From assembly GCA_001790095.1 (NCBI GenBank), contig MGBH01000001.1, forward strand, positions 600,001 to 632,000: 32,000 nt of DNA, read 5' to 3'. Made by a program: the position numbers and the translations under genes. The notes beneath the pieces are model-generated. The model was not told the DNA's origin. It saw only the letters and a list, made by a program, of their open reading frames with translations, and made no database searches. This document shows, one piece after another, positions 1,428 to 32,000 of this stretch; the stretch's first letter is position 1, and each line of letters begins with the position of its first letter. This stretch comes from Candidatus Saccharimonadota bacterium. GTDB lineage: Bacteria > Patescibacteriota > Microgenomatia > UBA1406 > GWC2-37-13.

Positions 1428-1472
1428 ATAGTTTTACAACTCGTTAATAATTATTAGATTATACACTAATTA

Positions 1473-1481
1473 TGATACAAT
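1473..1481 (+). promoter_or_regulatory. Extended -10 element (TGaTACAAT) six nt upstream of the flippase ATG; possible leaderless transcript
   Basis: tgatacaat occurs twice in tandem (1473-1481 and 1481-1489). The first hexamer TACAAT ends at 1481 and the ATG is at 1488. No Shine-Dalgarno sequence is visible. Confidence 0.35.
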
Positions 1482-1487
1482 GATACA

Positions 1488-4296: not shown

Positions 4297-4314
4297 ACGT
4301 TTATTATACTTCCT

Positions 4315-5523: not shown

Positions 5524-5594
5524 AATGGTCAAAATCTAATTATACAATAGCATAGAAGATGTAATAGATATTTTTTGCATAATCTACTATGGGC

Positions 5595-5603
5595 TGTTAT
5601 AAT
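5595..5603 (+). promoter_or_regulatory. Extended -10 element TGtTATAAT upstream of the ROK-like gene
   Basis: The motif tgttataat was read directly. It lies 17 nt before the ATG at 5621, in a divergent intergenic region. Confidence 0.3.
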
Positions 5604-5620
5604 AACGTAATCCGATTAAT

Positions 5621-6715
5621 ATGTCAAGAGAAATTGTTAACCTTCTAACAAAACTTCCTGTCCCAGATCTAGTACCTTCTCAGCTTGCTGAATTCAACCC
5701 ACAAACTTTACGAGCACGGCACACAGAAAGATTTTTCGTAAATCACGCACTTGAATGTCTCAGAGATGCAAATGGACGGACTGGTTGGGCACTAGATATC
5801 GGTGGCACTGCGCTTAAAGCACAGCGCTTCACCATCCAAAACGGAGTTGTTGTCTTTTCACCAGATGATAAAGTAATCATGCAGGTTGAAGGAGAAAACG
5901 AAAAAAAGGGAAAAAATTATTTGGCGGCATTAATGCAATTAAGCGAAACTATAGAAGCGGATGATCTCATTGGAGTTTCTGTTGCAGGACTCGTAGAAAA
6001 TGGAAAACTAAAAGATAGCCCCAATCTTCCATCTTTTATACATGACTTGGAATCAGTCGGCGGACTTGATGCTATATTTAGAAGAAAAATAAGTGTGGCA
6101 AACGACGCCGTAGCCGGCCTTAAGGCTAGTATAGTTGGAGCATCGCAACATGGATTAGCTCATAAAAATGTACTCTATCTTATACATGGAGGAGGTATTG
6201 GGGGAGCTGCAAAAGATGGGGAAGATATGATGATATCCCTTGAACCTGGACATATAAGGGCAAGTCGGGAATTAAATCCAAGGGAAATAACTACACCATG
6301 TGGGATGGAGGAACAAACCTTTACCTGTCTTGAGCGTATTGGTTCCATGGGAGCAATAGAGGCTATCTGGAAAAATGTTATAACTGCATGGCAAGAACTA
6401 AATGGAAGACAGATTGCAGAACTTATGTATAGCGGGGACAAAAAAGCACTTGACTTATTTAACAATAGTGCAAATATTTTAGCTCACACTATTGAAGGAA
6501 TATGTATGTCTCTTGGGTTCTCCCCAAACGAAACTCTTGTTGTCATGCACGGAGGAGGAACAAAGGTCGAGGGTATGATGCAAAGAATTTCAAGTATTTT
6601 AGCCAAGCATCATACAGAACGCGGGCAGCAATACAAACTTGTACCTACCTCAGATTTTGGAATTGACAATGCCTGTCTTATGGGCGCTGCCATAAGTGCA
6701 GTAATAGGATCATAA
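5621..6715 (+). CDS. ROK-family / ASKHA-fold sugar kinase-like protein
   Basis: LDIGGTALK is a phosphate-1 type motif. VANDAVAG, HGGGIGGA and EPGH are also present. They are followed by a degenerate Cys motif, PCGMEEQTFTCLE. The gene looks somewhat more GC-rich than its neighbours by eye. Confidence 0.55.
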   Translation: MSREIVNLLTKLPVPDLVPSQLAEFNPQTLRARHTERFFVNHALECLRDANGRTGWALDIGGTALKAQRFTIQNGVVVFSPDDKVIMQVEGENEKKGKNYLAALMQLSETIEADDLIGVSVAGLVENGKLKDSPNLPSFIHDLESVGGLDAIFRRKISVANDAVAGLKASIVGASQHGLAHKNVLYLIHGGGIGGAAKDGEDMMISLEPGHIRASRELNPREITTPCGMEEQTFTCLERIGSMGAIEAIWKNVITAWQELNGRQIAELMYSGDKKALDLFNNSANILAHTIEGICMSLGFSPNETLVVMHGGGTKVEGMMQRISSILAKHHTERGQQYKLVPTSDFGIDNACLMGAAISAVIGS

Positions 6716-6766
6716 TACTTGAGATACAAAATGTCCCATGTTATACTTGAAAGATCGTTGTCTTAT

Positions 6767-6837
6767 GCGGGATTAGTTTAATGGCAGAACGAAAGATTTC
6801 CAATCTTTCGGCAGGGGTTCGATTCCCCTATCCCGCT
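6767..6837 (+). tRNA. tRNA-Gly (anticodon UCC)
   Basis: I folded the cloverleaf by hand. The acceptor stem is GCGGGAT/ATCCCGC and the D stem is GTTT/GAAC. The anticodon stem is AAAGA/TCTTT with loop TTTCCAA, giving anticodon TCC. The T arm is AGGGG-TTCGATT-CCCCT. The discriminator is T and CCA is not encoded. Confidence 0.9.
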
Positions 6838-6949
6838 CAAAATTGCTTTAAAGAGAAACGTAACAAAAATGGCATCTAGCCGTTAAAAATAGAGTAGTAT
6901 ATTAATTTACTCTTTCTTTAACCCTACACACATGGTTTTCTTTTCTTGG

Positions 6950-6976
6950 GTCATCCCTGCGTAGGCAGGGATCCAG
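6950..6976. repeat. GC-rich palindromic (REP-like) hairpin, copy 1
   Basis: The sequence is gtcatccctgcgtaggcagggatccag, with stem ATCCCTGC/GCAGGGAT. It is related to the reverse complement of the 7013-7038 copy. Confidence 0.6.
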
Positions 6977-7012
6977 TCTAAAATAACAAACTATAACAAG
7001 GTAATTATTCAT

Positions 7013-7038
7013 TGGATTCCCGCGTCCGCGGGAATGAC
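7013..7038. repeat. GC-rich palindromic (REP-like) hairpin, copy 2, inverted relative to copy 1
   Basis: The sequence is tggattcccgcgtccgcgggaatgac, with stem ATTCCCGCG/CGCGGGAAT. Its reverse complement, GTCATTCCCGCGGACGCGGGAATCCA, aligns with copy 1 (GTCATCCCTGCGTAGGCAGGGATCCA). Confidence 0.6.
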
Positions 7039-7064
7039 AATTACAATTTTAAGCAAGACACTTC

Positions 7065-9245
7065 TTACTCTTTTCTAAACACCTCTATCAGGTGTCTAAG
7101 AGGGGAGTAGAAGACAGTCAATCTTCCAATTTGAGTAGGTTGGATTATCATCTCAAAGTCTCCTTTTTCAATTGGTATTTCTTTCCCGTTTTGGAAAGCC
7201 ACAAATCCTTTAGGATTCATGATGAGTACAAGTTTCTTTGAGATTTCTTTTTTTGATATTGCAAACTCCACTCTGTTTGGATTAACATATGTCGGCACTG
7301 CCACTGTCTCCTTATCTGTTCCTTCGATGTATCGATATATTGGAGGAGCTGATTCGATTTCATAGTAATAAGTCCCTCCTTCTTTCAAAAGAAGTTCGTA
7401 TTTTTTTAATGGTCGGTCAGATATGATATATCTGATTCCAAGTCGCCCCCAGCGGTCATCGTTCATCGTCACTCTTGAAGTATCTAGTGCGTTGATGTGG
7501 GATGTTTTAGTGGTCTTTGCGAACTCCTCATTCCGTGAGATTATATAGCTATACTCTGATTGATAATTATGTGAGAAGTTTGAAAAATATGTTGCAAGCT
7601 TTTTTGGGACAAATGTGTTATATCCCTGGACAGCATATGTATTGGCAACAGCCGCCCATGAGGTGGGAATAGTCACAAGTGTTTTTTTTAATTTGTCATA
7701 AGATTGCTCTTCATAAAGATCGATCATGGACTTTTCTTTTGAAAAGGGAGGACGAAACATTATGCTGCTCATATAGGTATGAAAACCCGTATAGGGAATC
7801 ACGTCTGAAGTAGATTGTATACGATATGTCTTTGCATCAATTGATTTGGGAAAGCTTGTCTTTACCGAAAGAGCAGAGGCAGGTATAAAATATCCGTGAA
7901 AATAATTTACCAGAAGTCCCTCAATAAATACAAATAGCAGTAAAAAATATATACCGTATTTTTTGTTCATACTCCCGGCATACATCATAAACCCCAACAA
8001 GCCCATAGGTATAAAGCTCAACCCCATAAGTCTTCCGATTGCGCGCACCGTATCAAGAGTAAAAAAGAGGCTAACCGCGCCGTGTTTGAGCATCGCATAT
8101 CCGTTTTGAAAAAGGAGAGGAAATAGAGGAGAGACAAAAAAAACAAAAGCAGTAATTGAAAAAAATATAAGTAACAAATAGCTTTTTCTCCATCTTTCTT
8201 CCACTAATAGAGCAATGCTGTCTTTATATGAGGCAACAATAATCAATATTATTATATGTATGATCACCCATATCTGCCCGGCTCCTCTAAAAAAAGGAAT
8301 ATTTAGTATTCCCAAAGAAAGAAAAATACAGATAGATAAAATAATGACGTAGTATGACGCAATTTTTCTTTTATATATCGTACGGATAAAAAGGAAAACT
8401 AATAATAAAGAAGACAGGATGACTGTGGTAGGTCCGGCATTCCAGCTTGAACCGTTTTGAATCATCCCAAGGTAAAAAGGCAGTATCAGCTGCAGATGCT
8501 GTAGCGGTCGAATCGACCCAATATCAGCATATTCCTTTCCCGCACCAAGTCGGGTCGAGTCCATAACCAAAGGTAGAGAAAAGATATAATACCAGCTCGT
8601 TGAAAAAGCAAGAAGAATAAAAAACAAAACCGTCTTTTTAAGAGATATCTTGTAATGAAAAATAGCTACGAGAAAGCCAAGGATATACCCATACACTACA
8701 AACTGCAAATGTCCCGATATCGTCATAAAAAACCCAACGATAAGTGGCAGCACATATCCGCCTTTTTTTTCTCTTAAAAAGGAAAGAGAGTATAAAAATA
8801 TCCCGTAGTGGGCAATCGTCACAAATATGGTGGGGTTGTTGAGTCTTACAAATCCGCTTCCTGAGAAAAAAAGGATAAAAGTATAAAGTAGCGCAAGCGT
8901 TTTATCTTTAGTTATAGAGCAAAAAAACAAATAAAATCCATATAAGAATATAAATACCGTAATACCCACCCAAACAGCAAACGATAGAGGATAAGGTAGC
9001 GCAAAAAAAAGATTGAACGGGTGGATATTGCCCATCCCCACATCAAATGCAAAAGGTACTCCAAGAAATATATGAGGGTTAAAAAGAGGAAGTATTCCAC
9101 CCGCTAGCCATTTACCCAAAAATATTTTCTGAGCAAGAAATAGGATTATGGTATCTGTTGAAAGATTTACAAAATGATAGTAAAAGCAAGACAGTAGAAT
9201 AGAAAATAATATAAAAGCTATTAAATGGATGTGTTTTCTAGTCAT
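7065..9245 (-). CDS. Large polytopic membrane protein with a C-terminal extracytoplasmic domain, YfhO-like / GT-C-type glycosyltransferase candidate
   Basis: 726 aa. About 460 aa of transmembrane helices are followed by about 260 aa of soluble domain. It overlaps the upstream GT-C gene by 8 nt and follows a soluble GT2. The family call rests on architecture and context. Confidence 0.5.
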   Translation of the reverse strand: MTRKHIHLIAFILFSILLSCFYYHFVNLSTDTIILFLAQKIFLGKWLAGGILPLFNPHIFLGVPFAFDVGMGNIHPFNLFFALPYPLSFAVWVGITVFIFLYGFYLFFCSITKDKTLALLYTFILFFSGSGFVRLNNPTIFVTIAHYGIFLYSLSFLREKKGGYVLPLIVGFFMTISGHLQFVVYGYILGFLVAIFHYKISLKKTVLFFILLAFSTSWYYIFSLPLVMDSTRLGAGKEYADIGSIRPLQHLQLILPFYLGMIQNGSSWNAGPTTVILSSLLLVFLFIRTIYKRKIASYYVIILSICIFLSLGILNIPFFRGAGQIWVIIHIIILIIVASYKDSIALLVEERWRKSYLLLIFFSITAFVFFVSPLFPLLFQNGYAMLKHGAVSLFFTLDTVRAIGRLMGLSFIPMGLLGFMMYAGSMNKKYGIYFLLLFVFIEGLLVNYFHGYFIPASALSVKTSFPKSIDAKTYRIQSTSDVIPYTGFHTYMSSIMFRPPFSKEKSMIDLYEEQSYDKLKKTLVTIPTSWAAVANTYAVQGYNTFVPKKLATYFSNFSHNYQSEYSYIISRNEEFAKTTKTSHINALDTSRVTMNDDRWGRLGIRYIISDRPLKKYELLLKEGGTYYYEIESAPPIYRYIEGTDKETVAVPTYVNPNRVEFAISKKEISKKLVLIMNPKGFVAFQNGKEIPIEKGDFEMIIQPTQIGRLTVFYSPLRHLIEVFRKE

Positions 9246-10755
9246 GATTTATTTTATATACATTTACTAAAGAGACACCGTCTCTTTTAACTTGATATAT
9301 GATCTTTCCGTTCACCCCCCTATTATCCTGAAATCTATCCCAACATATGACATAATCAGCGCCCTTCTTGTTATCAGCCAATCTCATTTTGTTACTGAAA
9401 TGATAGGATGCTGAATACGAGGTTCCACACACATTGATCGTAACAGCTTGAGATGATTTGTTCGCAATATTGTCACGTATCCATAAGGTGGCCTCCCTGT
9501 TTGCAGCACCCCAATAATCAGTTTCAAACTTTCCACTGGCTCCCCTTACCCCTCCAATTAATTCATTAAAGTATACATACTCAAAAGGATGTAGGCGCAC
9601 ATAGCTCATAGCAATCAAAATAAAATTTGCAATCACAATTATTCCAAAAAATAACCCCACTCTTTTATGTTTTTTCAATAGATATATGAGTCCGGTGACA
9701 GAAAGCAGTATAAGCTGCGGGAGAAAATAAAGAAAGTGACGTATCCCGTCATAGATCACTGGTTTTATTAAAATAAACATGAGGATATTTACTCCTAAAG
9801 AAATAAGGAGTAGCTGAACAAGTCTTTCTTTGTGACCTTTTACTATTCCGATGGGAATAAGGGGAATGATGACACAAGGCAAGGTGATCAGAAACCAAAC
9901 AGGAAGATAAAGCCAGGGCAGCTGTTTGGGCAGGAAAAGATTTCCGAAAAATAAAATACTTTTATCCCATCCGTTGTTGCTTGTCATTTTTATAAGATCA
10001 ATAAAATGATTGATCGGATCAGCTCCAAGATAGGGGACTGAAAATACATGGATAAGTAGTCCGATGCATAGGATCAAAAACGTTTCAAAAAACATGTCAA
10101 CCAATATCTTTTTTTTATACCTGATGTTTTTCTGATTAAATATGGACAATAAACTAAAAATAAGAAATACAGGATATATAGTATAACCAACCAATCGGGC
10201 AGATTGTGTCAGCCCAAATGAAATACCAAGTATAAGTATTCTCGCCTTGTCGTTCCACTCTTGAGAAAGAAAAATAAGAGAAAGAGAGAGAAAATACAGG
10301 ACTGCAAACGGTATATCTTTTGGATTAGAGGGGATATCCCCAAAAAACCGAGGAGTAAAAACTAAAAATATGGGTCCTAATAAAGCATAATATATATTCT
10401 TTGTTTCGCTAAGCAACACTTCATAAAGTGCGATAAAGATAAGAGAAACAAATATAAAATTAAGGAGATGATACCGTTCAAAACTTTCCCCGCTGTTAAG
10501 TTGATAAAGAAAAGCGGGATACGTATTGTTGTAATAGATCATTTCATTGCTCCCTCTAGGTATCACAAAATCCTTTTGAAGAGTTTGATCGTTGCCGCGG
10601 ACTTTTATATAGAGAAGCTTTCCTCGTAAATACACATCTCTCTCATCAAACGTAATACCGTATTGTTTATAGGTAAGTAGAGCGAAGATAAAGTAACATA
10701 TGAGAAATATAAAAAGAGGAATCCTTAGTTTTAAGAGAGAGATTGTTCTCTTCAT
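9238..10755 (-). CDS. GT-C fold membrane glycosyltransferase (PMT_2/ArnT-like)
   Basis: 505 aa and polytopic. The first loop, YGITFDERDVYLRG, carries a DE-type acidic motif. A C-terminal soluble domain is present. The start overlaps the GT2 stop by 4 nt. Confidence 0.6.
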   Translation of the reverse strand: MKRTISLLKLRIPLFIFLICYFIFALLTYKQYGITFDERDVYLRGKLLYIKVRGNDQTLQKDFVIPRGSNEMIYYNNTYPAFLYQLNSGESFERYHLLNFIFVSLIFIALYEVLLSETKNIYYALLGPIFLVFTPRFFGDIPSNPKDIPFAVLYFLSLSLIFLSQEWNDKARILILGISFGLTQSARLVGYTIYPVFLIFSLLSIFNQKNIRYKKKILVDMFFETFLILCIGLLIHVFSVPYLGADPINHFIDLIKMTSNNGWDKSILFFGNLFLPKQLPWLYLPVWFLITLPCVIIPLIPIGIVKGHKERLVQLLLISLGVNILMFILIKPVIYDGIRHFLYFLPQLILLSVTGLIYLLKKHKRVGLFFGIIVIANFILIAMSYVRLHPFEYVYFNELIGGVRGASGKFETDYWGAANREATLWIRDNIANKSSQAVTINVCGTSYSASYHFSNKMRLADNKKGADYVICWDRFQDNRGVNGKIIYQVKRDGVSLVNVYKINHD

Positions 10756-11486
10756 CTTGCAAACAGATTAAAATATACTATCTCCCATAGTGCCCGCACT
10801 CCATCACGCCACCCAATCTTTTTACCTTCAGAGTAGGTGCGCCCCGCATAAGAAATACCAACTTCATAGATCTTTACCTCCTTAATCTTTGAGATTCGTG
10901 CAGTTATCTCTGGTTCAAAACCAAACCGCTGAGTTATAAGATGGGGGGCAATCTTACGGATAAGGGTGCCTTTAAAAACCTTAAACCCTGTCTCCATATC
11001 AGTCAGATTAAGATTGGTGAACATATTTGAGAGCATGGTTAAAAATTTGTTTATCACCGAGTGCCAGAAATACAAGACTCTGTGTGGTCGATCAGAGATA
11101 AACCGTGAACCATATACCACATCCGCCTCCCTGTTTAGAAAAGGTCCAATCAGGGTCGGATAATCTGACGGATCATATTCAAGGTCAGCATCCTGTACCA
11201 AAACAATGTCTCCCGTTGTTTTTCTAAACCCATTCTTAAGCGCCGCTCCTTTTCCTTCATTGTTCTTTTTGAAAATAGTATAGATAACATAGTTTTGCTT
11301 TATCTTTATACTTGCTACTTTCTTCTTTATACTTTCTACTGTCTTATCCGTTGAGCCATCATCAACTACTATAATCTCTTTTTTTAAGCCAAGAGTGTCA
11401 GCAGAGATTACTTTTGTGATGGTTTGAGTAATAAGTTTCTCTTCGTTATAGACGGGGATGATGATGGAGATCGTTTTGTAGCCCAT
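10752..11486 (-). CDS. GT2 polyprenol-phosphate glycosyltransferase (Dpm1/CsbB-like, no C-terminal TM helices)
   Basis: Motifs present are ISIIIPVYNEEKLI, VVDDGSTDKT and VQDADLEYDP (DxD). The protein is 244 aa. Confidence 0.8.
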   Translation of the reverse strand: MGYKTISIIIPVYNEEKLITQTITKVISADTLGLKKEIIVVDDGSTDKTVESIKKKVASIKIKQNYVIYTIFKKNNEGKGAALKNGFRKTTGDIVLVQDADLEYDPSDYPTLIGPFLNREADVVYGSRFISDRPHRVLYFWHSVINKFLTMLSNMFTNLNLTDMETGFKVFKGTLIRKIAPHLITQRFGFEPEITARISKIKEVKIYEVGISYAGRTYSEGKKIGWRDGVRALWEIVYFNLFAR

Positions 11487-21232: not shown

Positions 21233-22843
21233 TTATTCTTGCAATTTGATAATTTTTTTATACACCTCAAGGTCATTGTGTTTGTACACCAAGAAAAAGT
21301 CTTGGTCAGATCTAAGCTTGTCGTATGCGGTTGCCATGATCTCTTTTTGCCACCCCTTTTTTGCCTCGTTAATAGATACTATAACATAATCCGCTTGTAC
21401 ATAATAATCAGAAAAATTGTAAAAATACCGGCGTGATGTAAAATAAGGAGCAAAGTGGCCGGTTGATGAGATCTTTATATATTCATCGCTTAGTTCCTTA
21501 CTCAATTTTTTTATAGCAGGTAATGTTTGAGGTACGTGCGTAAAAGCATATATGTCTTTTTTTTTCGCATACGGCAAGGGTCCTTCAAGATATGATACAA
21601 AAAGCAAACCTATTAAAAATAGAGTGCTCAATATAACAAAAATTCTATCTTTACCAAACTTTATTTGTATATTTTTTTGGGAAGAAATAAATGAATATAT
21701 AGAATGAAATCCATGTATGGCAGAAATAAATACAAAAGGAGTGATGACAGCAGTGTAGTGATAAATTATGTTTCTCATATTAAAACTTGTTGAAAGGAGA
21801 TTTATTGCAAATTCAGGAAATACAATCAACAAATGTGGCAAAGAAAAAACCGACAAAAATCCAACCGGACTTAAAAGCTGATAAAAATAAATAAGTGTGT
21901 CTTTGCGATATATGTATCTTAAAAAGTGAGTAAGATCGCTGTAATAATCTAGGGCAAAATGCCCACCCTGTGGTCGGGCAAGCGGAATAATGATCTTCAT
22001 CGAGATAAAAAACCATACTACGCTTACTCCAATCACGATGAGCGGAAACCACGCCTTAAGATGTTTTTTCTTCAGTGAGACAATATACTCTGATATTTCT
22101 TTCTTCTTTGGTAAAAATAAATCTGAATTTATGGTCTTATAAAGTATAAAAAAACCAAAGAAACTAGTAGTAAGACCCATATGCTCCTTGGTTAAAAGAC
22201 TTAAAAAAAGAAAGAATAAACTCCATGCATATTTTTTTTTACTCCAGAAATAATACATGAAAAGAAGAAATGAGGTAGAAAGAGTAACCGCATGAAACTC
22301 ATAAATGACAGCCCTTTGAAGCGGAGGATAAAAAAGATAGGAGAAGGCAAAAATGACACTTATCAATCTCTGCTGACTATTTTTTTCAAATACTTTTAAC
22401 GAGATATTAAAAACTGCCCATGCACCAAGTCCTACCACTACTGCCTGAAGGACTAAAAGAGTAGATGGCCCATCATGCAAAAAATAAAGCGGGGAAATGA
22501 GCGCAAGAAACAAATCATTATGGATTGCCATACGCTTTACCTGCTCAAATCCATGAGGGTTTGTCATCTCGAGAAACCGTGAAAAATCAAATGTCTGAAT
22601 AGCTCTATAGGTGTTATATACCGTCTGATGCATGATGCCCAGATCAAAATATGAAGCAACCAGTCTTTGATAACGCAGTACGGTATAAACCGAAAAATAA
22701 ATACTAAATATCAAAATACCCGCCCAAACTAGTATATTTGATACCTGTTTTCCTGTTTTTTTTTGTCTAATCATTCTCTTGTTTTTTACTTCTAAGTTAT
22801 TTGTTTGCTCTTTTTTATTTGTTTCCCGAATGGTATTTCTCAT
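21233..22843 (-). CDS. DUF2079-family polytopic membrane protein (GT-C-like candidate)
   Basis: 536 aa. SYFDLGIMHQTVYNTY follows the first helix, which I recall as the DUF2079 signature region. Many helices follow. The alternative start M24 at 22774 would remove the 29-nt overlap with xer. Confidence 0.6.
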   Translation of the reverse strand: MRNTIRETNKKEQTNNLEVKNKRMIRQKKTGKQVSNILVWAGILIFSIYFSVYTVLRYQRLVASYFDLGIMHQTVYNTYRAIQTFDFSRFLEMTNPHGFEQVKRMAIHNDLFLALISPLYFLHDGPSTLLVLQAVVVGLGAWAVFNISLKVFEKNSQQRLISVIFAFSYLFYPPLQRAVIYEFHAVTLSTSFLLFMYYFWSKKKYAWSLFFLFLSLLTKEHMGLTTSFFGFFILYKTINSDLFLPKKKEISEYIVSLKKKHLKAWFPLIVIGVSVVWFFISMKIIIPLARPQGGHFALDYYSDLTHFLRYIYRKDTLIYFYQLLSPVGFLSVFSLPHLLIVFPEFAINLLSTSFNMRNIIYHYTAVITPFVFISAIHGFHSIYSFISSQKNIQIKFGKDRIFVILSTLFLIGLLFVSYLEGPLPYAKKKDIYAFTHVPQTLPAIKKLSKELSDEYIKISSTGHFAPYFTSRRYFYNFSDYYVQADYVIVSINEAKKGWQKEIMATAYDKLRSDQDFFLVYKHNDLEVYKKIIKLQE

Positions 22844-23750
22844 GAACCTCTCTTAATCTGGCGTTTGTCACATGGGTATAGATTTGGGTCGTTGCAATGT
22901 TTTTGTGCCCAAGCATCTCCTGGACACTTCGCAGATCTGCTCCGTGTGATAACAAGTCCGTAGCAAAACTGTGACGCAAAGCATGAGGTCCTATCTTATC
23001 TAAAATCCCTGATTTTTTTCTGTATTTATCTACCATCCGTTCGATCGAACGCACTGAAAGCCGTCTTTTTTGATCCGTAAGATTGTCATCACTTGGTCCG
23101 CTGTAGCGGATAAAAAGAGATGCGTATGGATCTTTGCGCATCGAAAGATATTTTGTTAACCATTCCTTTGCTTTTTGCGATATGAATACAACCCGCATCT
23201 TACCTCCTTTTCCCAATACCCCAAACTCTCCCGCATCCAAATTTACTTTTTCGCGGTTTAATGCGGCAAGTTCTGAGACACGAAGACCGGTTGAGAATAG
23301 TACTTCAAGTATGGTGCGATCACGTACCCCTGGTTCATCTGTTGTATCAACACTCCTAAATAATCTCTCCAGATCATTTTCAGACAAAAATTTGATATTA
23401 CGATCGCGCAGTTTTCCAAGCTCAATCATGTCAGGGGAGAGAACAGGAAGTTTTTGTTTGACAAGATAGCGAAAAAAAGAACGAAGCGCCACCAAAAAAT
23501 AGTTCTGAGTCTGCCGTTTGAGATTGCCCTTAAATGGATTTTTGTAGCTGTGTGAAAGATAGAGCCGGAAGTTTCGGATCATGTTTTCATCGATTTTTTC
23601 TACGTCATAGTCCTGCAGGTTAGTCTGTGCAAGAACCCACGATTGAAAAAATTGCAAGTAATACCCGTACATCTTGACAGTCTTGAGAGAAAGGTTGCGA
23701 TCAAGCTCACTATACTCAAGAAAGCGTAAGATTCCCTCTTTTATTCCCAT
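22815..23750 (-). CDS. xerC: Tyrosine recombinase, XerC/XerD type
   Basis: 311 aa with an N-terminal SAM-like domain. The catalytic region reads GLRVSELAAL...HALRHSFATDLLSHGADLRSVQEMLGHKNIATTQIYTHV, giving the R..HxxR..H..Y residues. Confidence 0.85.
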   Translation of the reverse strand: MGIKEGILRFLEYSELDRNLSLKTVKMYGYYLQFFQSWVLAQTNLQDYDVEKIDENMIRNFRLYLSHSYKNPFKGNLKRQTQNYFLVALRSFFRYLVKQKLPVLSPDMIELGKLRDRNIKFLSENDLERLFRSVDTTDEPGVRDRTILEVLFSTGLRVSELAALNREKVNLDAGEFGVLGKGGKMRVVFISQKAKEWLTKYLSMRKDPYASLFIRYSGPSDDNLTDQKRRLSVRSIERMVDKYRKKSGILDKIGPHALRHSFATDLLSHGADLRSVQEMLGHKNIATTQIYTHVTNARLREVHEKYHSGNK

Positions 23751-23837
23751 ATATCCATATTAAACGACGTTGAAGAAAAAAACAAGTTAATTGAGGCGTT
23801 TACACTGTAGAAGTAAATCAAAAACTTTTATTTTCAG

Positions 23838-23920
23838 TGCCGGGGAGAGGACTTGAACCTCCACGATCTCACGATCACAGGTTCCTAAAACCTGCGTGTA
23901 TGCCATTTCACCACCCCGGC
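23838..23920 (-). tRNA. tRNA-Leu (anticodon UAG), class II with long variable arm
   Basis: The reverse complement is GCCGGGGTGGTGAAATGGCATACACGCAGGTTTTAGGAACCTGTGATCGTGAGATCGTGGAGGTTCAAGTCCTCTCCCCGGCA. The anticodon stem is CAGGT/ACCTG with loop TTTAGGA. Confidence 0.9.
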
Positions 23921-24414: not shown

Positions 24415-25095
24415 ATGAAAATGAAAAGAGAAAGGCTGTTTATGGCAGGATTGGGTTTTATTATTGGCATTGTTCTGCTACTGATAGGAGGCATCGCTAG
24501 CTGGTTTCTTAAGCCATGTGCTTCCCCAAAAGTAGAGTACGCAACACTAAGGCCGCTTGCTACACAGGCGCACGCCACAGCGACGCTTGCTCCAACCGCA
24601 ACCAACACCCCCACGGCCGCCTATACTGATACGCCTGAGCCGACGCAAACCGCCACTCCCGAGCCGACCCTAACGGCCACGACAAGCTTCACCGAAACGT
24701 TTCCGCTTCAGAAACAGCTCGTGAAGATCTCTTCTATCCAAGCTAACGGCTCGATGAGTTACATCTTCTTGACCATTATTTGGAGAAAAGACGATCCGAC
24801 CAGGGCTGAGGTATGGTTATCGTTTTTGCAGAATCTATCCTCAGAAACTCCGATACCCATCGGAGTAGGGTTTGATGGAGTTTCGAACCACGCGCTCGTT
24901 GCTTGGGAAGTGAATGCACAAACGTGGCCAGCCGACTATTGTGAAATAGCGGTATGGTTACGCAATGGTGGACTCGCGCCTCAGACATACGTCCACTACT
25001 ACACTGTGGACGGGGTAGAAACGACCGATGCGGCCGATGCGCAAACTCTCTGTTTATTCCCGTCAACGCCAACCCCGACGCTGGCTGTTCCATAA
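24415..25095 (+). CDS. Hypothetical membrane-anchored protein with a Pro/Thr-rich linker; compositionally foreign (GC-rich)
   Basis: 226 aa with an SD-like AGAGGA upstream and an N-terminal helix, GLGFIIGIVLLLIGGIASWF. A PT-rich linker follows (TATLAPTATNTPTAAYTDTPEPTQTATPEPTLTAT), then a globular domain of about 130 aa. I counted 39/60 G+C for 24601-24660 and 34/60 for 24961-25020. The first 60 nt of the ORF count 20/60. Confidence 0.6.
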   Translation: MKMKRERLFMAGLGFIIGIVLLLIGGIASWFLKPCASPKVEYATLRPLATQAHATATLAPTATNTPTAAYTDTPEPTQTATPEPTLTATTSFTETFPLQKQLVKISSIQANGSMSYIFLTIIWRKDDPTRAEVWLSFLQNLSSETPIPIGVGFDGVSNHALVAWEVNAQTWPADYCEIAVWLRNGGLAPQTYVHYYTVDGVETTDAADAQTLCLFPSTPTPTLAVP

Positions 25096-26499: not shown

Positions 26500-26524
26500 G
26501 TTGGTTTATAATGAATCAATCGAT

Positions 26525-26791
26525 ATGTATTATGTTTATGTACTTGAAAGCAAAAAAGACCGCAAACATTATATTGGATTCACTGAAGACCTCAATCGAA
26601 GAATAATAGAACATACAAAGGGTGAGGTTGAAAGTACAAAAAAAAGAAGGCCATTAGAGTTAGTTTATTATGAGGCATATAAATATGAAAAAGACGCAAG
26701 GAGACAAGAATTGTTATATAAAACTGGCCAAGGAAGAAGAATATTGCAAAAAAGATTAAGAAATAAATTCGATCTTGGAGAAGTCGCCTAG
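26525..26791 (+). CDS. Small stand-alone GIY-YIG nuclease-domain protein (UPF0213/COG2827-like)
   Basis: MYYVYVLESKKDRKHYIGFTEDLNRRIIEH carries the GIY and YIG beta-hairpin motifs. Conserved R and E residues follow downstream. The track start at 26501 is a TTG inside the repeat, and the domain begins at the ATG at 26525. The last five codons and the TAG stop lie inside the tRNA-Ser gene. Confidence 0.8.
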   Translation: MYYVYVLESKKDRKHYIGFTEDLNRRIIEHTKGEVESTKKRRPLELVYYEAYKYEKDARRQELLYKTGQGRRILQKRLRNKFDLGEVA

Positions 26792-26864
26792 TTGGTTTAT
26801 GGCGCAGACCTGGAAAGTCTGTATGGGCGCAAGCCTATCGCGAGTTCGAATCTCGCCTTCTCCG
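26777..26864 (+). tRNA. tRNA-Ser (anticodon GGA), class II
   Basis: I folded it by hand. The acceptor stem is GGAGAAG/CTTCTCC. The anticodon stem is CAGAC/GTCTG with loop CTGGAAA. The variable arm TATGGGCGCAAGCCTATC is 18 nt. The T arm is GCGAG-TTCGAAT-CTCGC. The discriminator is G and the length is 88 nt. Confidence 0.9.
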
Positions 26865-27111
26865 CATTTTGATCGAAAGTTCTACTAGTCCCTTCTACCC
26901 TCTCACTTTGGCCCTTCAGGACTTGCTGAAAAATCGTAAGAAACATTAATACTCCTCAAACAGTCCTGTAGAATGAAAAACAGTCTAAAAAGCCCTCAAG
27001 GTAAATGCTCTTGGTTCTAACCTTTTTGCGTTATTTAGGTTGTTGGAGTCTTCTTTGGCACTTATGAGGTTTCGTTCGAATCCTTCTTCCTATTCTCTTA
27101 ATGTATTGAGG

Positions 27112-27948
27112 TTACAAAGGATTTTGTTTTGCTCTTTTAATCGTTCCAGATTTCAAATCCTCTTCAACCCAATCTCCATTTTGATCAATATATTGTTTCC
27201 TAATATCACCCTCCATAAACATCACTGGTTTTACCCCTTCTTTTGAAATTATGAAGGTTTGAATTGTTCCACCTATTGTTTGATTATTCGCAGATTTAAG
27301 ATAACTCTTACATGTCTCACAAAGTATTATGCCTTTATTTTGAGCACCAGGAACAAAAAATAATTTGGGATACATCTCTGTAATATCTTTTTCAAAATCT
27401 TTTCCTGATCCAGTAGCTGTATAGTCCCATCCGACCGTTGAAGAAATACGCCCGTCAGGAAAGTGCTGTTTTATTAATAATGGTGTTGGGGCAGGAATTT
27501 TAGTTTTTTTATTCTTTGGAGTTATTTTTATTGTCTTGATTTTTTCTGGAATAAAAGAATTATTTTTATGTAAATTCAACATTTGGATTAACTTATTAGT
27601 CCTAACAACATATGGTTCATTTATCATTGCTGAGTATATAAATATTATTTCAGGCTTTGATGAAATTAAAAGTTTATTGTAAGCCTCAATTGCATATGAA
27701 GTTATGTCTTTCAAAAATTTTGAAGTGTTTTTGTCTTGTCTTGATGAGGCAAATATGGTTATTTTCTCAATCAATTTACAGGTAAAAACAACATCGTTTG
27801 TTGTAAATGAGATTAGCGAATGTGATGATAATTGATATATCTTCTTTAATTCATCCTTAGGAGGTTTTATATTATTTTGGTAGGATATTCTACTATCACT
27901 AAAAACAATCACCTCATCTGCAAATCCGACCGATGCAATCAGTGTCAT
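27112..27948 (-). CDS. Proteasome beta-subunit / HslV-like N-terminal nucleophile (Ntn) hydrolase homologue
   Basis: MTLIASVGFADEVIVFSDSRISYQNNIKPPKDELKKIYQL places Thr at position 1 after Met removal. It also places Asp at 17 and Lys-Lys at 34-35. From memory, Thermoplasma beta reads TTTVGI...ATERR...KNGKKLFQI and HslV has T1/D17/K33. Later, YTATGSGKDF matches the (A/S)TGSG loop. An insert of about 45 aa and a C-terminal extension of about 60 aa are extra. Confidence 0.55.
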   Translation of the reverse strand: MTLIASVGFADEVIVFSDSRISYQNNIKPPKDELKKIYQLSSHSLISFTTNDVVFTCKLIEKITIFASSRQDKNTSKFLKDITSYAIEAYNKLLISSKPEIIFIYSAMINEPYVVRTNKLIQMLNLHKNNSFIPEKIKTIKITPKNKKTKIPAPTPLLIKQHFPDGRISSTVGWDYTATGSGKDFEKDITEMYPKLFFVPGAQNKGIILCETCKSYLKSANNQTIGGTIQTFIISKEGVKPVMFMEGDIRKQYIDQNGDWVEEDLKSGTIKRAKQNPL

Positions 27949-27967
27949 GCAGATATTTTATCACTAG

Positions 27968-29284
27968 TTATACCAGTATTAATCGTCTTTGAATTAGCTC
28001 AAATTTTGAGTAGATCCCTCCTAGAATTTTAAGCCTCTCTTCCGGTGTTCCATACTGAAGTACGTGAAGTAGATAATCCTTGAGCATCTGTATTTGTTCT
28101 TCCTTTGGCTGAATATCTATATTTAATCCATCATTGTATTTGGTTAATTCAAGTTTTGAATTTTTTTCTTTGAGAACAGTGTTTTTTATATGCTGAAGTC
28201 TTGTTATTTCGTTTTGGAACTCAGAGAGAAGAAGTGAGGTTTTGAGTTTAATATTTGGAAGATGGACGACAAGCTGTTTTATTAATTCTGTTTCGGTAAT
28301 ATACGGTTCCTTACATGTATAGTCTTTTTTACGATTACAGTGGTAATAGATATGAGAATGAACTCGATTGTTTATTAAATGTTTATATTTAATCTCTGCA
28401 GTCACACTTCCTCCACAGGTTCCGCACTTACATATCTTTTTGAAAGGGAATAATTGCTTGTTCCATTGTTTTGGCGCAACCTCTAATTGTATCTGTACTT
28501 TTTCAAATATCTGCTTTGAAATTATCGGTTCATAATTACCTTTGTATCTTTTATTACCATAGACAAACTCTCCATAATAAAAAGGATTACGAAGGGCAAC
28601 ATATACTTTACTCAAATGCATTAGGCAATTATTTTTTGTCCTATATCCAATATCATCCAACCACTTCTTTACCATTCGTCCTGAAAACCCTTGGTTAGCC
28701 ACCTTAAGAAACATCTCTCGAACAATCGGAGCTCGTTCTTCGTCAATACAAACGGTTGATATTCTATTTGCCCTAAGGACATTTTTATAACCAATTGGTG
28801 CAAGTCCCGGTCGAATACCAAATTCACATTTATTCCGCAATCCTCTTTTTACATTGACGCCTCGATTATCGTTTTCTAATTTTGCTTGGCTACATAAAAT
28901 CATAAGAAGAAATTTTTCATTTGGATTGTTTGAAAATGACTGAGAATATGTCCGAATGGTTTGTAGTTTTCCCTGATCCATGAGATCAACAATCCTACCA
29001 AGATCACCTGCATTTCTACTCAACCTATCAGGAGCCCACGTGAGAATTGCATTATATCTATCGTCAATTAAACCTTGAAGTAAGTTGTTAAACTCAGGTC
29101 GTTGACCAGATTCTTTTGCAGAATGGCTTTCAGTTATTACTTCAGTCACAAACAGCTTCTCTTTCTTTGCCATCGCCTTCATTTCGCTCAGTTGTCCATC
29201 AATACTCATTGCTTGGCGCTCATCAGATTCTGACGATTTCCTTGCATAAAGACAATATTTTAGATTGTTTTGAAGCTCTCCCAT
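27968..29284 (-). CDS. Large serine recombinase (integrase)
   Basis: The resolvase-type N-terminus reads CLYARKSSESDERQAMSIDGQ (catalytic Ser), followed by LTWAPDRLSRN. A recombinase domain follows, then a zinc-ribbon CKCGTCGG...YYHC and a C-terminal coiled-coil. The track start is a TTG. The ATG at 29284 has GAGG four nt upstream. Confidence 0.85.
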   Translation of the reverse strand: MGELQNNLKYCLYARKSSESDERQAMSIDGQLSEMKAMAKKEKLFVTEVITESHSAKESGQRPEFNNLLQGLIDDRYNAILTWAPDRLSRNAGDLGRIVDLMDQGKLQTIRTYSQSFSNNPNEKFLLMILCSQAKLENDNRGVNVKRGLRNKCEFGIRPGLAPIGYKNVLRANRISTVCIDEERAPIVREMFLKVANQGFSGRMVKKWLDDIGYRTKNNCLMHLSKVYVALRNPFYYGEFVYGNKRYKGNYEPIISKQIFEKVQIQLEVAPKQWNKQLFPFKKICKCGTCGGSVTAEIKYKHLINNRVHSHIYYHCNRKKDYTCKEPYITETELIKQLVVHLPNIKLKTSLLLSEFQNEITRLQHIKNTVLKEKNSKLELTKYNDGLNIDIQPKEEQIQMLKDYLLHVLQYGTPEERLKILGGIYSKFELIQRRLILV

Positions 29285-29331
29285 ATACCTCAAAGGTATC
29301 AGTATGGTTGTGTAAGTCAAGGCAATATTAA

Positions 29332-30789
29332 TTAAAGTCGATGAAAGAATCTATAAGCATCAGAATCGACCCCAAATGCCCGAGCTTTCCTTGGATTATG
29401 TTTTATGATTTGTAGAATAAGCATTGAGAAGGCATCGGCCAAATCGTCATGTCTTTCAACTCCAAAACTTACTAACTGGCTAATAAGTTGATCTGCTCCT
29501 TTTCTTGGAAAGAGCACTTTTCCATTTTGAATCCAACTGGTCGTTTGTGAGATTCGGGCCCGCTTATCAGCTCCAAGTAGTTTTACTCCTTGGACTTGGA
29601 GCCCTTGCTGATTAAGTTCTTGAATGACAGCTGCTTGATACGCAACATCTTCTACAAACCACTTACGCACTATCTCATTTTGTTTTTCATTCTCTTTGAG
29701 TATTGTTTGGATTGTTTTTGGGAAATCCATTCTTCGATTAATCGGGAAAGGACTTATATATATCTTTGTATCCTTATCAATACCAAAGACATATCCTGAA
29801 ACAATTGCGGTGAAATCTGCTGTTTGTTTTTCAGATATTGCTAAATCAACAGAAAATGCAAAATATCGAAAGTTGTTGCTTTGGGTTAAACTCGGTAATT
29901 CGTCATAATAACAAATCCACTCAGGTCTTACAACGATATCGTTATCAGGGACAATGGTTAATAAATATTCTCTTTGAAATGCAATGTGTCCAACTCGACT
30001 TCTCTCTTGATCTATCGACTCTCTATCTGGATATTTGCCCGGCCAAATGATCACATCCTCATTTGTCAAAAGTGGGTAAGCTTTAAAAATTCGTTTTTTA
30101 TTTTCTTTATTCCCTTGTTCTTTTAATCGCATGATAAGAGAGTCTTCGTGTAACAAGTTACCAATAACGACAACTTTTGTATTAATGTCACCCATAGGAA
30201 TGAGTTCTCCTGTGAACCATTGATATGTTTTATCTCTTCCTTCTTGGGTTTTGACTGTGTTTATATCCTCTACATCGTCACAAATAATTAAATCTGGTCG
30301 ATATGCGCCGTGACGAAGTCCACGTATTGATTCGTTCGCAGAAATAGCAAGAATTCGTGTCCCATAGGGACCGATTATAAGTGAGTCTGCTCTCCATGCA
30401 TCATTCTCTTCGGCAAACGGGCCAAAGTCTTCAATTAACAAACTATTTGATTCAAGTTCATTTTTGATCTGATACAACAATGTTTTGCTTTGATTTTGTG
30501 TCAAGCTCGCAACAACAATACATTTCTTTTGAGGTGTTCCAAGCATAGCCCACAAAGGATAGGAAAGAGTCATTATGGTTGACTTCGCAGACCCTCGAAA
30601 AGATACTATCACAGCGTCTTTTATGTTTTCATTCTCGGTTATGTTGAATATTTCTTTATGAAAATCTGCTGTCTTAAATTTGACGTAATGACTGAGGTAT
30701 ATGTGGAAAAACCAATAATGGCTTTTCATTGCAAGGTTTTTTCGAACTCCTCGATTGTGAATAATCTTCTGTAAAACATCATGATCCAT
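29332..30789 (-). CDS. Phage terminase large subunit (ATPase plus RNase H-like nuclease)
   Basis: The Walker A-like motif is SFRGSAKST and Walker B is PDLIICDDVED. The C-terminal nuclease acidic motif is HDDLADAFSM. The track start is a TTG, and the ATG at 30789 overlaps the upstream stop. Confidence 0.8.
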   Translation of the reverse strand: MDHDVLQKIIHNRGVRKNLAMKSHYWFFHIYLSHYVKFKTADFHKEIFNITENENIKDAVIVSFRGSAKSTIMTLSYPLWAMLGTPQKKCIVVASLTQNQSKTLLYQIKNELESNSLLIEDFGPFAEENDAWRADSLIIGPYGTRILAISANESIRGLRHGAYRPDLIICDDVEDINTVKTQEGRDKTYQWFTGELIPMGDINTKVVVIGNLLHEDSLIMRLKEQGNKENKKRIFKAYPLLTNEDVIIWPGKYPDRESIDQERSRVGHIAFQREYLLTIVPDNDIVVRPEWICYYDELPSLTQSNNFRYFAFSVDLAISEKQTADFTAIVSGYVFGIDKDTKIYISPFPINRRMDFPKTIQTILKENEKQNEIVRKWFVEDVAYQAAVIQELNQQGLQVQGVKLLGADKRARISQTTSWIQNGKVLFPRKGADQLISQLVSFGVERHDDLADAFSMLILQIIKHNPRKARAFGVDSDAYRFFHRL

Positions 30790-31213
30790 TATTTTCCACT
30801 TTTTCAACTTCTAACGACGGCGAAAATGATGCGAGTTCTAAAGCTTTATTTATAAGTAATTCTTGTTCTTGAGTAAGAGGAATATTCTCATTTTTTACTT
30901 TTGCAGTAAGTTCAATCCTATTTCCATATTGTCTGTGATTATGTTTTAACCAAAAGATTATTGCTGTTAAATCATTATTTTGAATTGCCTTTAAAAGTTG
31001 CGATTCGGCAAGATCATTTATGAAGTTACGACCAGTCGCAATAGATTCATCAGCCTTACGAACAAACTCTTCATCTTCATTTCGCCAACGATAGTATGTA
31101 GAGCGTCCAACCCCCGTCTTTTCACACGCAATTTGAACAATTGGCACTCTCTTTAGTTGTTCAATGAGAAGTTCTTTATTCTTTTCAATTCGTTCAGTAA
31201 TTGAATTACTCAT
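30779..31213 (-). CDS. HTH protein, terminase small-subunit-like
   Basis: 144 aa. The N-terminal helix-turn-helix reads IACEKTGVGRSTYYRWRNEDEEF. The gene lies immediately upstream of the large terminase and overlaps it. Confidence 0.55.
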   Translation of the reverse strand: MSNSITERIEKNKELLIEQLKRVPIVQIACEKTGVGRSTYYRWRNEDEEFVRKADESIATGRNFINDLAESQLLKAIQNNDLTAIIFWLKHNHRQYGNRIELTAKVKNENIPLTQEQELLINKALELASFSPSLEVEKVENNGS

Positions 31214-32000
31214 ATAGTTTAATAGCTTTTTTGCCGGTCAGTTTTTGCCAGCGATTTCTAATCACTTCTGCATAAATTGGTGATTTTTCCATGAGGAAAC
31301 AGCGACGTTTCATTCTTTCACAAGCTATAAGAGTACTTCCTGATCCGCCAAATGGTTCGGCGACTAAATCTCCTCTTTTGGTAAGTACTTTTATGTAAGG
31401 AATCAATATTTCAATTGGCTTTGTGCCAAAGATAATACCTTGTCCTGAGCTTTTTTCATCTGCAGCATGGTACTCTATAAAATCTGTCGGTTGATATTTT
31501 TTCCCCTTCTTATATCCTTCCCATTGAGGTTTTCCTGCGATTGCATAAAGTGCAGTTTCATATTCATTTTGTAATCCGTCACCTTCGCTTTCATAATTGA
31601 ATTCAACATCAACAGTCTTACTAGCTCCCACCATTGCAATATCGTGTTTACTGAAAAACTTATACTTTGCTGCAAAACCTTGATTCCGGTTTGGCAAATG
31701 CCACACAATCATATTCTTTACCTTCCAATACTTCTCCATGACGCCCCATATTGTTCGTATATTTTTCCAATTCTCATAGACAATTATTGAAAAATGTTCC
31801 CCTTGGATTTTGGCAATGCTTCCCATCCATTTTTCAGTAAAGTCAGGAGGAAGTAGATCCGTTTCTAGGTATCTTCGATCTCTCTTTGCTCCAAAACCCG
31901 TTACTGCAGTTCCATGTTTTTTCTTTCCATTAAGGTAGTCGAGAATATAGGGAGGATCTGTAAAACACATATCTGCCTTTTCACTTCCGAAAAGTTTTAG
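31206..32000 (-). CDS. DNA methyltransferase (N6-adenine/N4-cytosine class, DPPY motif); N-terminus outside the window
   Basis: KADMCFTDPPY is catalytic motif IV. EPFGGSGST near the C-terminus is the AdoMet motif I. The reading frame stays open from 31970 to 32000 (LKLFGSEKAD), so the listed ATG is probably internal. Confidence 0.8.
   Translation of the reverse strand, partial: LKLFGSEKADMCFTDPPYILDYLNGKKKHGTAVTGFGAKRDRRYLETDLLPPDFTEKWMGSIAKIQGEHFSIIVYENWKNIRTIWGVMEKYWKVKNMIVWHLPNRNQGFAAKYKFFSKHDIAMVGASKTVDVEFNYESEGDGLQNEYETALYAIAGKPQWEGYKKGKKYQPTDFIEYHAADEKSSGQGIIFGTKPIEILIPYIKVLTKRGDLVAEPFGGSGSTLIACERMKRRCFLMEKSPIYAEVIRNRWQKLTGKKAIKLYE

Follow-up and report, generated by a model that had tools for sequence, protein, structure and literature searches.

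A predicted stand-alone hydrolase of the proteasome-beta superfamily at the end of a composite tRNA-Ser island in a Microgenomates bacterium

What is a proteasome-like protein doing at the edge of a phage-like element in a bacterium of the Candidate Phyla Radiation (CPR)? The question arises from a 32,000-nt stretch of contig MGBH01000001.1 (GenBank assembly GCA_001790095.1, positions 600,001 to 632,000), referred to here as the window, in which an open reading frame (ORF) behind a large serine recombinase gene had been proposed, from its sequence, to encode an N-terminal nucleophile (Ntn) hydrolase resembling proteasome beta subunits and HslV. The ORF, its length of 278 residues and all of the motifs quoted from it in the original prediction are in place (Table 1). 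Records of Candidatus Roizmanbacteria, an uncultured groundwater bacterium, include the Ntn protein unchanged under the name 'hypothetical protein' (locus tag A2334_03580; OGK62585.1 and others); the depositing genomes are CPR/Microgenomates metagenome-assembled genomes (MAGs) with contigs of up to 1.2 Mb, and at least 49 data blocks have contigs that encode the identical protein. We read the Ntn gene as encoding a catalytically competent, stand-alone hydrolase of the proteasome-beta superfamily and as an accessory, horizontally moving single gene, with a probability of about 0.7; a role in conflicts between mobile elements and their hosts is judged separately below.

The proteasome-type fold and homology are close to certain. 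Searches with the single sequence gave no match among PDB sequences and nothing useful in PHROGs, PADLOC or NCBIfam, and the distant relatives P0046, P0062, P0085 and P0132 exceed the Pfam Proteasome threshold by themselves. A profile of 56 sequences matches Plasmodium beta1 in the PDB with E = 3.4e-7, an archaeal alpha subunit with 1e-6, M. tuberculosis PrcB with 2e-4, and HslV with 1.7e-3. The profile alignment is in register: S/T2 falls on the mature Thr1, DSR on Asp17/Arg19 and K36 on Lys33, and the Ser129 loop is matched by GSG and the Ser169-Gly-Gly loop by S/T-V-G-G. A first AlphaFold2 model, made with 9 sequences, reached a predicted local distance difference test score (pLDDT) of 70.5 and was mediocre at helices H3 and H4; a second, made with the 56 sequences, reached a pLDDT of 92 and a predicted template modeling score (pTM) of 0.90, with every segment at 50 or above. 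Foldseek comparison of the model with the PDB (the first model was also put through this search) returned 901 chains at E ≤ 1e-3, and the best 50 are all 20S subunits; the best matches have E ~1e-8, a probability of 1.00 and template modeling (TM) scores of 0.70–0.75 by target length. The order of elements is canonical, with strands S1-S2 and S3-S4 followed by helices H1 (residues 53–69) and H2 (75–93), further strands, the GSG loop, helices H3 (185–197) and H4 (202–219), which are separated by 4 residues, and the last strands. The proposed proteasome-beta/HslV-like Ntn fold thus stands, and the Ntn protein is a member of the proteasome-beta superfamily in an uncharacterized subfamily.

The family is sparse: 5.8 billion proteins include 9 close relatives of the Ntn protein, and an exhaustive profile search of 1.84 billion gave 141 cluster representatives; 132 of 149 retrieved relatives start with MT or MS. 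An alignment of 56 diverse relatives underlies all conservation counts given here. At position 2 all 56 have either Ser (31) or Thr (25), and D18, R20, K36, G180, G226 and G227 are invariant. S181 is retained in 51, G182 in 55 and W260 in 53, 48 have S or T at position 224, and D32, P164 and G238 are also at least 90% conserved. Position 35 varies (Q, K, R or L), unlike K36. Such motifs go far past what chance would give. The catalytic T1/D17/K33 and GSG pattern recognized in the original prediction is therefore borne out both by the conserved columns and by their alignment with beta subunits.

The Lys-rich insert and C-terminal extension, also claimed previously, are both present and modeled. 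The Lys-rich segment has nine Lys and no Arg in residues 117–157, and the insert consists of two short helices, a Lys-rich linker and a short strand, placed between core strands 113–116 and 155–163 ahead of the GSG loop. The C-terminal extension is built of strands at residues 244–246, 250–254, 260–264 and 270–274. P134 within the insert and the neighboring T155-P156 are invariant among close relatives. Comparison with an 80%-identical homologue gives a ratio of nonsynonymous to synonymous substitution rates (dN/dS) of 0.12 overall, 0.11 for the insert and 0.08 for residues 231–278, and these low values, including those of the insert and the C-terminal region, show that the whole architecture is under purifying selection; the insert and extension are as constrained as the remainder of the protein.

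The Ntn family occurs in several Microgenomates lineages, including a 30%-identical relative in Candidatus Levybacteria, and more widely in a Nitrospirae MAG and in many metagenomic proteins, a few of which are automatically labeled 'Proteasome subunit'. GTDB species representatives gave one weak archaeal match only, in a scan sensitive to close relatives only. We note that four proteins of ~580 amino acids (P0046, P0051, P0062 and P0132) have a second superfamily architecture, in which an N-terminal proteasome-like domain passing the Pfam threshold is joined to a C-terminal DUF6941. A literature search found mention neither of DUF6941 nor of proteasome homologues of CPR bacteria.

Judging from its sequence, the Ntn protein is very probably an active enzyme. 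Thr is a permissive second residue for methionine aminopeptidase, which is why we expect this enzyme to remove Met1 and expose Thr2; in E. coli HslV, removal of Met alone exposes the Thr. Thr2 would then serve as nucleophile and general base together with Lys36 and Asp18/Arg20, as in proteasome beta and HslV, and the GSG loop (equivalent to Ser129) and the T-I-G-G loop (equivalent to Ser169-Gly-Gly) would complete the active site. The predicted reaction is cleavage, and possibly transfer, of peptide or amide bonds. There is no AAA+ unfoldase or alpha-type subunit among the annotated window ORFs or in the 20 kb beyond (~50 kb together), which agrees with the earlier report of no HslU-like ATPase or alpha subunit in the window. 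Because the Ntn hydrolase is accompanied by neither of these, nor by a propeptide, it would be expected not to need ATP and to act on unfolded proteins, on peptides or on a single specific target. The 35-residue Lys-rich insert and the C-terminal beta extension probably shape assembly or substrate choice.

How does this protein compare with the known proteasome-type systems? The 20S beta subunits (archaeal, PrcB and eukaryotic beta1–7) share with it the alpha-beta-beta-alpha Ntn fold and an alignment of all catalytic elements, and they are the top structural (E ~1e-8) and sequence-profile (E = 3.4e-7) matches of the family. They differ from the Ntn protein, to which they are 12–18% identical, in that it has no propeptide, has no alpha partner or AAA+ regulator nearby, and is ~80 residues longer, with the 35-residue insert preceding the GSG loop and with beta strands at the C-terminus where helix H5 would be. 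Against the canonical 20S beta equivalogs (TIGR03634 and TIGR03690) it scores 13.1 bits compared with an NCBIfam cut-off of 224. HslV (ClpQ) is bacterial and has the same catalytic residues, but the Ntn gene has no adjacent hslU, its product is 278 residues long rather than about 175, and the profile match of E = 1.7e-3 compares with 3.4e-7 for 20S beta. Anbu and BPH are, like the Ntn protein, bacterial proteasome homologues that stand alone without a dedicated unfoldase; neither is among the 60 best profile matches to the PDB. The Anbu operon encodes ATP-grasp, transglutaminase-like and alpha-E proteins, whereas the neighbors of the Ntn gene are a recombinase and a tRNA, and Anbu has a long coiled-coil helix where the Ntn protein has a beta-strand C-terminus.

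The original prediction could not place such a protease in any described system, and this part of it has to be given up. Fuchs, Alva and Lupas (2021, Bioinformatics, PMC8665760) described 22 orphan families of proteasome homologues without AAA+ partners (PPH, AAH, CPH, RPC, DPH, WPH, PHI, PMI-1 to PMI-6, PHD, ACC, FC1–5, DAH and GPH), in which the active site is conserved, a propeptide is lacking, insertions and C-terminal domains vary, the gene context is uninformative and the function unknown. Several of these (PPH, AAH, CPH, PMI-4 and DAH) are phage-borne, and a stand-alone, mobile-element-associated proteasome-like enzyme is thus of a kind already described; CPR lineages are unmentioned in that study. 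The Ntn protein is like these families in being divergent, with an intact active site, no propeptide, no AAA+ partner, and an extra insert and C-terminus. It is unlike PPH, which is ~140 residues long, lacks H2 and is tailed-phage-encoded or phage-flanked (PMC8665760), in having 278 residues, both H1 and H2, and no phage-genome match, and the presence of H2 also sets it apart from RPC by the published description. PMI-2 to PMI-6 have an insertion between H3 and H4 (PMC8665760), where the Ntn protein has a gap of just 4 residues. More generally, the site of its insert is absent from the insertion sites described in PMC8665760, a comparison made with the published descriptions and not with the cluster sequences. 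A resemblance to WPH/group II by the criterion of PMC8665760 is that the Ntn profile matches beta (3.4e-7) and archaeal alpha subunits (1e-6) near-equally. Phage proteins in BFVD (such as Siphoviridae sp. A0A8S5LJV3 and Gordonia phage Nymphadora A0A142KAQ6) are structural matches with Foldseek probability 1.0 and E = 4e-6 to 3e-5 but are only 12–14% identical to the Ntn protein; because they have the same fold, mobile elements do carry proteasome-fold enzymes. The Ntn family is an addition to the orphan proteasome-like Ntn hydrolases of prokaryotes and mobile elements, and possibly a new subfamily.

Where else is the gene found? Comparison of 11 independent loci shows no neighbor common to them, and the contexts are of several types. 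First, there are loci at the ends or junctions of islands. The 80%-identical homologue (L007) faces the 3′ end of a tRNA-Ser at a different locus, of the CGA isoacceptor, and on its 2.4-kb contig has a membrane protein gene upstream and no recombinase. A 32%-identical homologue (L099) is the terminal gene of an island with an HTH_17 gene and a serine recombinase, adjoining the genes for ribosomal protein L19 and PyrG, and one of 30% identity (L012) is situated where housekeeping genes meet an AbiV/SNase/helix-turn-helix (HTH) island. Second, there are loci within other gene groups. One relative is among UvrA, UvrC and SecG genes with a serine recombinase 9 kb away (L001; 49% identity), another lies between Ku/LigD and an ImmA-type peptidase (L098; 41%), and a third is in an AlpA/AAA_25 primase/TerS satellite-like module (L016; 21%). 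The L016 segment at 595–8984 includes the 327-residue relative together with AlpA, an AAA_25 primase-helicase, a TSCPD protein and a small terminase, and the host DNA is ~58% GC. Three further loci (L004, L005 and L006) are short contigs of mostly ORFs without a family. Finally, in L100 a 26%-identical relative (10001–10909) has been inserted, in the opposite orientation, between the genes for transketolase and ribulose-phosphate 3-epimerase, with spacers of 34 and 4 nt; a GC trough of 46–49% coincides exactly with the ORF within DNA of 63–74% GC, and there are no flanking repeats.

The Ntn gene often, though not always, lands in variable islands. Its own GC content of 0.306 is the lowest locally, its neighbors, including the phage-derived genes beside it, being at 0.35–0.37, and the gene is below its surroundings in GC in most hosts examined. 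The recombinases near it in different loci are only 23–31% identical to each other. A tblastn search of 50,697 GenBank phage genomes gave no match to the Ntn gene, and scans of IMG/VR gave no close relative of it; the large terminase subunit (TerL) of the window was also unmatched there. Taken together, the sparseness of the family, the differing contexts, the GC content and the lack of phage matches indicate that the Ntn gene acts as a horizontally moving single-gene accessory unit, and we consider it probable that it is accessory and horizontally acquired.

Some further candidate readings were set aside. A ~175-residue upstream ORF seen in several loci was considered as a conserved partner, but all-against-all BLASTP and Pfam searches show no relationship among these ORFs. 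A transposon-like unit was rejected as three independent insertions have no terminal inverted or direct repeats in common. DNA similarity between the window and L007 ends at the ORF ends; we withdrew this break as proof of solo movement, because at a synonymous divergence (dS) of ~1 neutral flanks would in any case be saturated, and only the difference in neighbor content is used.

Table 1. Coordinates in the window of the Ntn hydrolase gene, its motifs and the adjoining genes
Feature	Position	Strand	Basis and remarks
tRNA-Ser(GGA)	26777..26865	plus	ARAGORN; Rfam tRNA 56.7 bits; 3′ end faces Ntn 3′ end, 246 nt apart; island boundary
Ntn hydrolase gene	27112..27948	minus	ORF listing: 278 aa, ATG start, TAA stop
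C-terminal beta-strand extension, residues 244-278, with Trp260	27115..27219	minus	Modeled strands and conservation
Thr224-Ile-Gly-Gly-Thr-Ile-Gln230	27259..27279	minus	Equivalent to Ser169-Gly-Gly loop; aligned to 'SGG' (beta1) and 'TFGG' (beta3)
Thr179-Gly-Ser-Gly182	27403..27414	minus	Equivalent to Gly128-Ser129-Gly130 loop; aligned to GSGS of beta1
Family-specific insert, ~35 aa, residues 117-151	27496..27600	minus	Model secondary structure, pLDDT 84-96
Lys35-Lys36 (in KKIYQL)	27841..27846	minus	Lys36 equivalent to catalytic Lys33
Asp18-Ser19-Arg20 (in FSDSR)	27889..27897	minus	Equivalent to proteasome Asp17/Arg19; D-S/T-R signature
Met1-Thr2	27943..27948	minus	Thr predicted N-terminal nucleophile once Met is gone; no propeptide
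Promoter-like site (TTAATA, 16-nt spacer, TG-extended TAAAAT)	27955..27982	minus	Consensus scan; overlaps recombinase gene end
Large serine recombinase (Resolvase + Recombinase + Zn-ribbon)	27968..29320	minus	Pfam; PHROG integrase family 95, E = 3e-60
Large terminase subunit (TerL), full length	29332..30807	minus	PHROG 38, E = 4e-81
Small terminase-like HTH protein (TerS)	30779..31213	minus	PHROG 309 and others; Pfam HTH_Tnp_1_2
ParB_N-fused N6/N4 DNA methyltransferase	31206..32000	minus	Leaves window; complete protein of 444 aa in L010

What, then, is the element that the gene terminates in the window? Starting from the tRNA-Ser, a run of genes on one strand comprises the Ntn hydrolase, serine recombinase, TerL, TerS, ParB-N6/N4 methylase and a 149-residue ORF. 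The reported distance of the Ntn gene from the recombinase is exact, with 19 nt between the recombinase stop (TAA) and the Ntn ATG, the spacer being CTAGTGATAAAATATCTGC. The promoter-like site near this junction is a pattern match only, and the count of such sites around the Ntn gene is not above shuffled expectation. TerL is 23–28% identical to Mu-like and siphovirus TerL proteins. On the other side of the tRNA-Ser, window positions 1–26,800 carry ordinary chromosomal genes (envelope polysaccharide, a two-component system, a major facilitator superfamily transporter and a XerC/D-like recombinase). Beyond the phage-derived genes, on the opposite strand, are an HKD-Snf2 helicase followed by a Type IIG restriction-methylase (its 89% orthologue matches PADLOC with E = 2e-227), and further out an Old/GajA-type ATPase-TOPRIM protein (E = 6e-43), a Cas4-like PD-(D/E)XK nuclease, a faint HEPN protein and an Mrr-like nuclease.

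Virion protein families of PHROGs were matched by none of 10 ORFs tested in the 20 kb past the block, in a search that very divergent virion proteins of CPR phages could escape. Since no virion family is matched and the recombinase gene, not a portal gene, comes straight after TerL, what was called a 'phage-like element' is a ~5.5-kb phage-derived block. This block sits inside a composite defense and mobile-element island abutting the 3′ end of the tRNA-Ser, and a complete prophage is not demonstrable at the locus. The packaging genes themselves form a module without a virion (window 27968–32000, continuing into L010 4892–9981), having TerL and then the recombinase but no portal, capsid or tail genes, and may be what is left of a prophage, or else a satellite-like CPR element.

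The idea that the Ntn gene is the terminal cargo of a phage-like element consequently holds in part. It is the last gene of the composite island, behind a recombinase and abutting the 3′ end of tRNA-Ser(GGA), with the phage-derived block and then defense genes following. It is not demonstrably prophage cargo, as the phage part consists only of the ParB-methylase, TerS, TerL and recombinase genes, the tested ORFs lack virion matches, and the 11 loci share no neighbor. The expected linkage of homologues to integrases is similarly mixed, with serine recombinases near the L001 and L099 homologues but none directly upstream of the 80% homologue on its 2.4-kb contig. None of the three findings named in advance as able to overturn the original prediction (no Ntn sandwich, unconserved catalytic residues, or homologues without mobile-element association) was made outright.

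The most probable role, on a guess that we hold tentatively and at clearly less than even odds, is in conflict between mobile elements and their hosts, as a defense effector or a counter-defense protease. We favor it among the roles considered because the island context recurs: other Ntn loci adjoin AbiV, an ImmA peptidase, serine-recombinase islands or the AlpA/primase/TerS satellite-like module. A more specific form of this idea strikes us as doubtful. It takes the gene as a single-gene conflict module, a Thr1 protease without a nearby ATPase partner that spreads horizontally into defense islands and the ends of mobile elements, where it would be an anti-phage (abortive-infection) effector or a counter-defense protease. 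The insert and C-terminal beta domain would let it recognize targets or assemble in a new way, which is part of the same doubtful proposal. The family is known so far in CPR bacteria and in one or more Nitrospirae MAGs.

Several observations weigh against a competent enzyme or against a role in conflict. The single Ntn protein matches Pfam Proteasome (PF00227) with E = 0.0017 and 18.5 bits, under the gathering score of 22.4. The residue equivalent to the oxyanion-hole Gly47 is Ser here and Gly in 44 of the 56 relatives. The nearest neighbors of the Ntn gene are mostly ORFs without a family, and the flanks of the L100 gene are purely housekeeping. Searched at E ≤ 0.1 with the Ntn protein and 8 relatives, PADLOC 2.0 gave noise-level matches only, and it is thus from the neighborhood alone that a defense role is suggested. 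Lastly, connectase, a monomeric archaeal proteasome homologue that ligates (PMC7980362, PMC8665760), illustrates that such a homologue can be a ligase and not a protease.

Could the gene instead be a moron of a functional temperate phage, placed between integrase and attachment site and expressed in the lysogen to the phage's benefit? Its position is what such a gene would have: it is on the same strand and 19 nt behind the recombinase, which itself comes after TerL and TerS, and it is terminal and faces a tRNA-Ser 3′ end, as does the 80%-identical homologue. Large serine recombinases are within 10 kb in L001 and L099, the distant L016 relative is in a satellite-like module, and phages do encode proteasome-fold proteins (BFVD; PMC8665760). 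We nonetheless find a phage moron improbable. None of the tested ORFs within 20 kb matches a virion family, the recombinase comes immediately after TerL, defense genes fill the stretch beyond the block, and neither the 50,697 phage genomes nor IMG/VR yielded the gene or a close relative. Moreover, the 80% homologue has a membrane protein and not a recombinase upstream, the GC content of 0.306 is below the 0.35–0.37 of the phage-derived block, and the nearby recombinases share only 23–31% identity between loci.

A second possibility, also improbable in our view, retains the Thr1 chemistry and changes the reaction: the Ntn protein would resemble connectase in being a sequence-specific ligase or transpeptidase, or else be an amidohydrolase whose substrate is not a protein. 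The absence of a nearby unfoldase and the presence of family-specific insertions near the core are compatible with this, and connectase, a stand-alone proteasome homologue whose insertions confer specificity, is the precedent (PMC7980362, PMC8665760). The connectase signature of a two-helix S3/S4 insertion with loss of the first helix pair (PMC8665760) is absent, however, the Ntn protein having H1, H2 and an insert elsewhere, and the proteins that it matches best in sequence and in structure are true proteolytic beta subunits.

We regard a housekeeping, self-compartmentalizing protease that replaces HslV or the 20S proteasome in CPR bacteria as very improbable. Purifying selection, the presence of the family in several Microgenomates lineages and the housekeeping genes flanking some loci are in its favor, but the family is extremely sparse (9 close relatives among 5.8 billion proteins), the close-relative scan of GTDB representatives gave only its one weak archaeal match, every locus has a different context, and the gene is low in GC in most hosts examined, with a sharp trough in L100. 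That the ORF is decaying or a pseudo-enzyme, to which its low GC content, sub-threshold Pfam score and Ser at the Gly47-equivalent position might point, is effectively refuted by the conservation data, namely a full-length dN/dS of 0.12 and an invariant catalytic set, together with a high-confidence fold model and the occurrence of the identical protein in contigs of 49 or more data blocks.

A stand-alone, horizontally moving hydrolase, as we prefer to read the gene, is of interest for two reasons. If the enzyme is active, a compact proteasome-type hydrolase without a nearby ATPase partner joins the small protein-turnover repertoire of the ultra-small CPR bacteria. In addition, the family is a concrete experimental handle on orphan proteasome homologues, having a defined catalytic set, a high-confidence model and a recurrent position in defense and mobile-element islands. 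Its significance is below that first suggested, given that orphan and phage-borne homologues were already described and the phage linkage here is to a remnant and not to a working prophage.

There are several minor observations in and around the island. The defense island is dense (L103 1690–16639, same genome, 1–16 kb past the right end of the window) and includes several ORFs of 200–550 residues without a family. Its Cas4-like PD-(D/E)XK protein (P0166; L103 10001–10753, A2334_03535) has more than 8,000 homologues at ~77–80% identity across Patescibacteria, which is unusually high for CPR. Neighbors of this gene vary between closely related strains (L018 and L101), and we withdrew it as the core-genome boundary of the island because the neighbors differ among strains. 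Close to the Ntn gene, at window 27065–27100 on the plus strand, the sequence 'GAGGTTTCGTTCGAATCCTTCTTCC' has the T-loop 9-mer GTTCGAATC and, after it, CTTCT(T)CC in common with the 3′ end of the intact tRNA-Ser, which lies 200 nt upstream. This stretch, located between the tRNA and the stop codon of the Ntn gene, may be a decayed tRNA or attachment site (att) fragment, or chance; we set it aside as an att remnant, as it shares only the 9-mer and an imperfect tail with the tRNA, its T-stem is unpaired, and neither ARAGORN nor Rfam calls it. A small GIY-YIG ORF (window 26501–26791, plus strand) overlaps the 5′ end of the tRNA-Ser by 15 nt, and a GIY-YIG gene 42% identical to it is at L004 4752–5006, 3.7 kb from the Ntn homologue. 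On the chromosomal side, a high-GC patch (24415–25095, plus strand; ~53% compared with a background of ~36%) lies between a tRNA-Leu and an FtsX-ECD-like gene and coincides with an ORF of 226 residues that has one N-terminal transmembrane segment, a Thr/Pro/Ala-rich linker and no family match. A XerC/D-type tyrosine recombinase gene (22815–23750, minus strand) is beside tRNA-Leu(TAG) (23837–23920, minus strand), ~3 kb from the tRNA-Ser island boundary.

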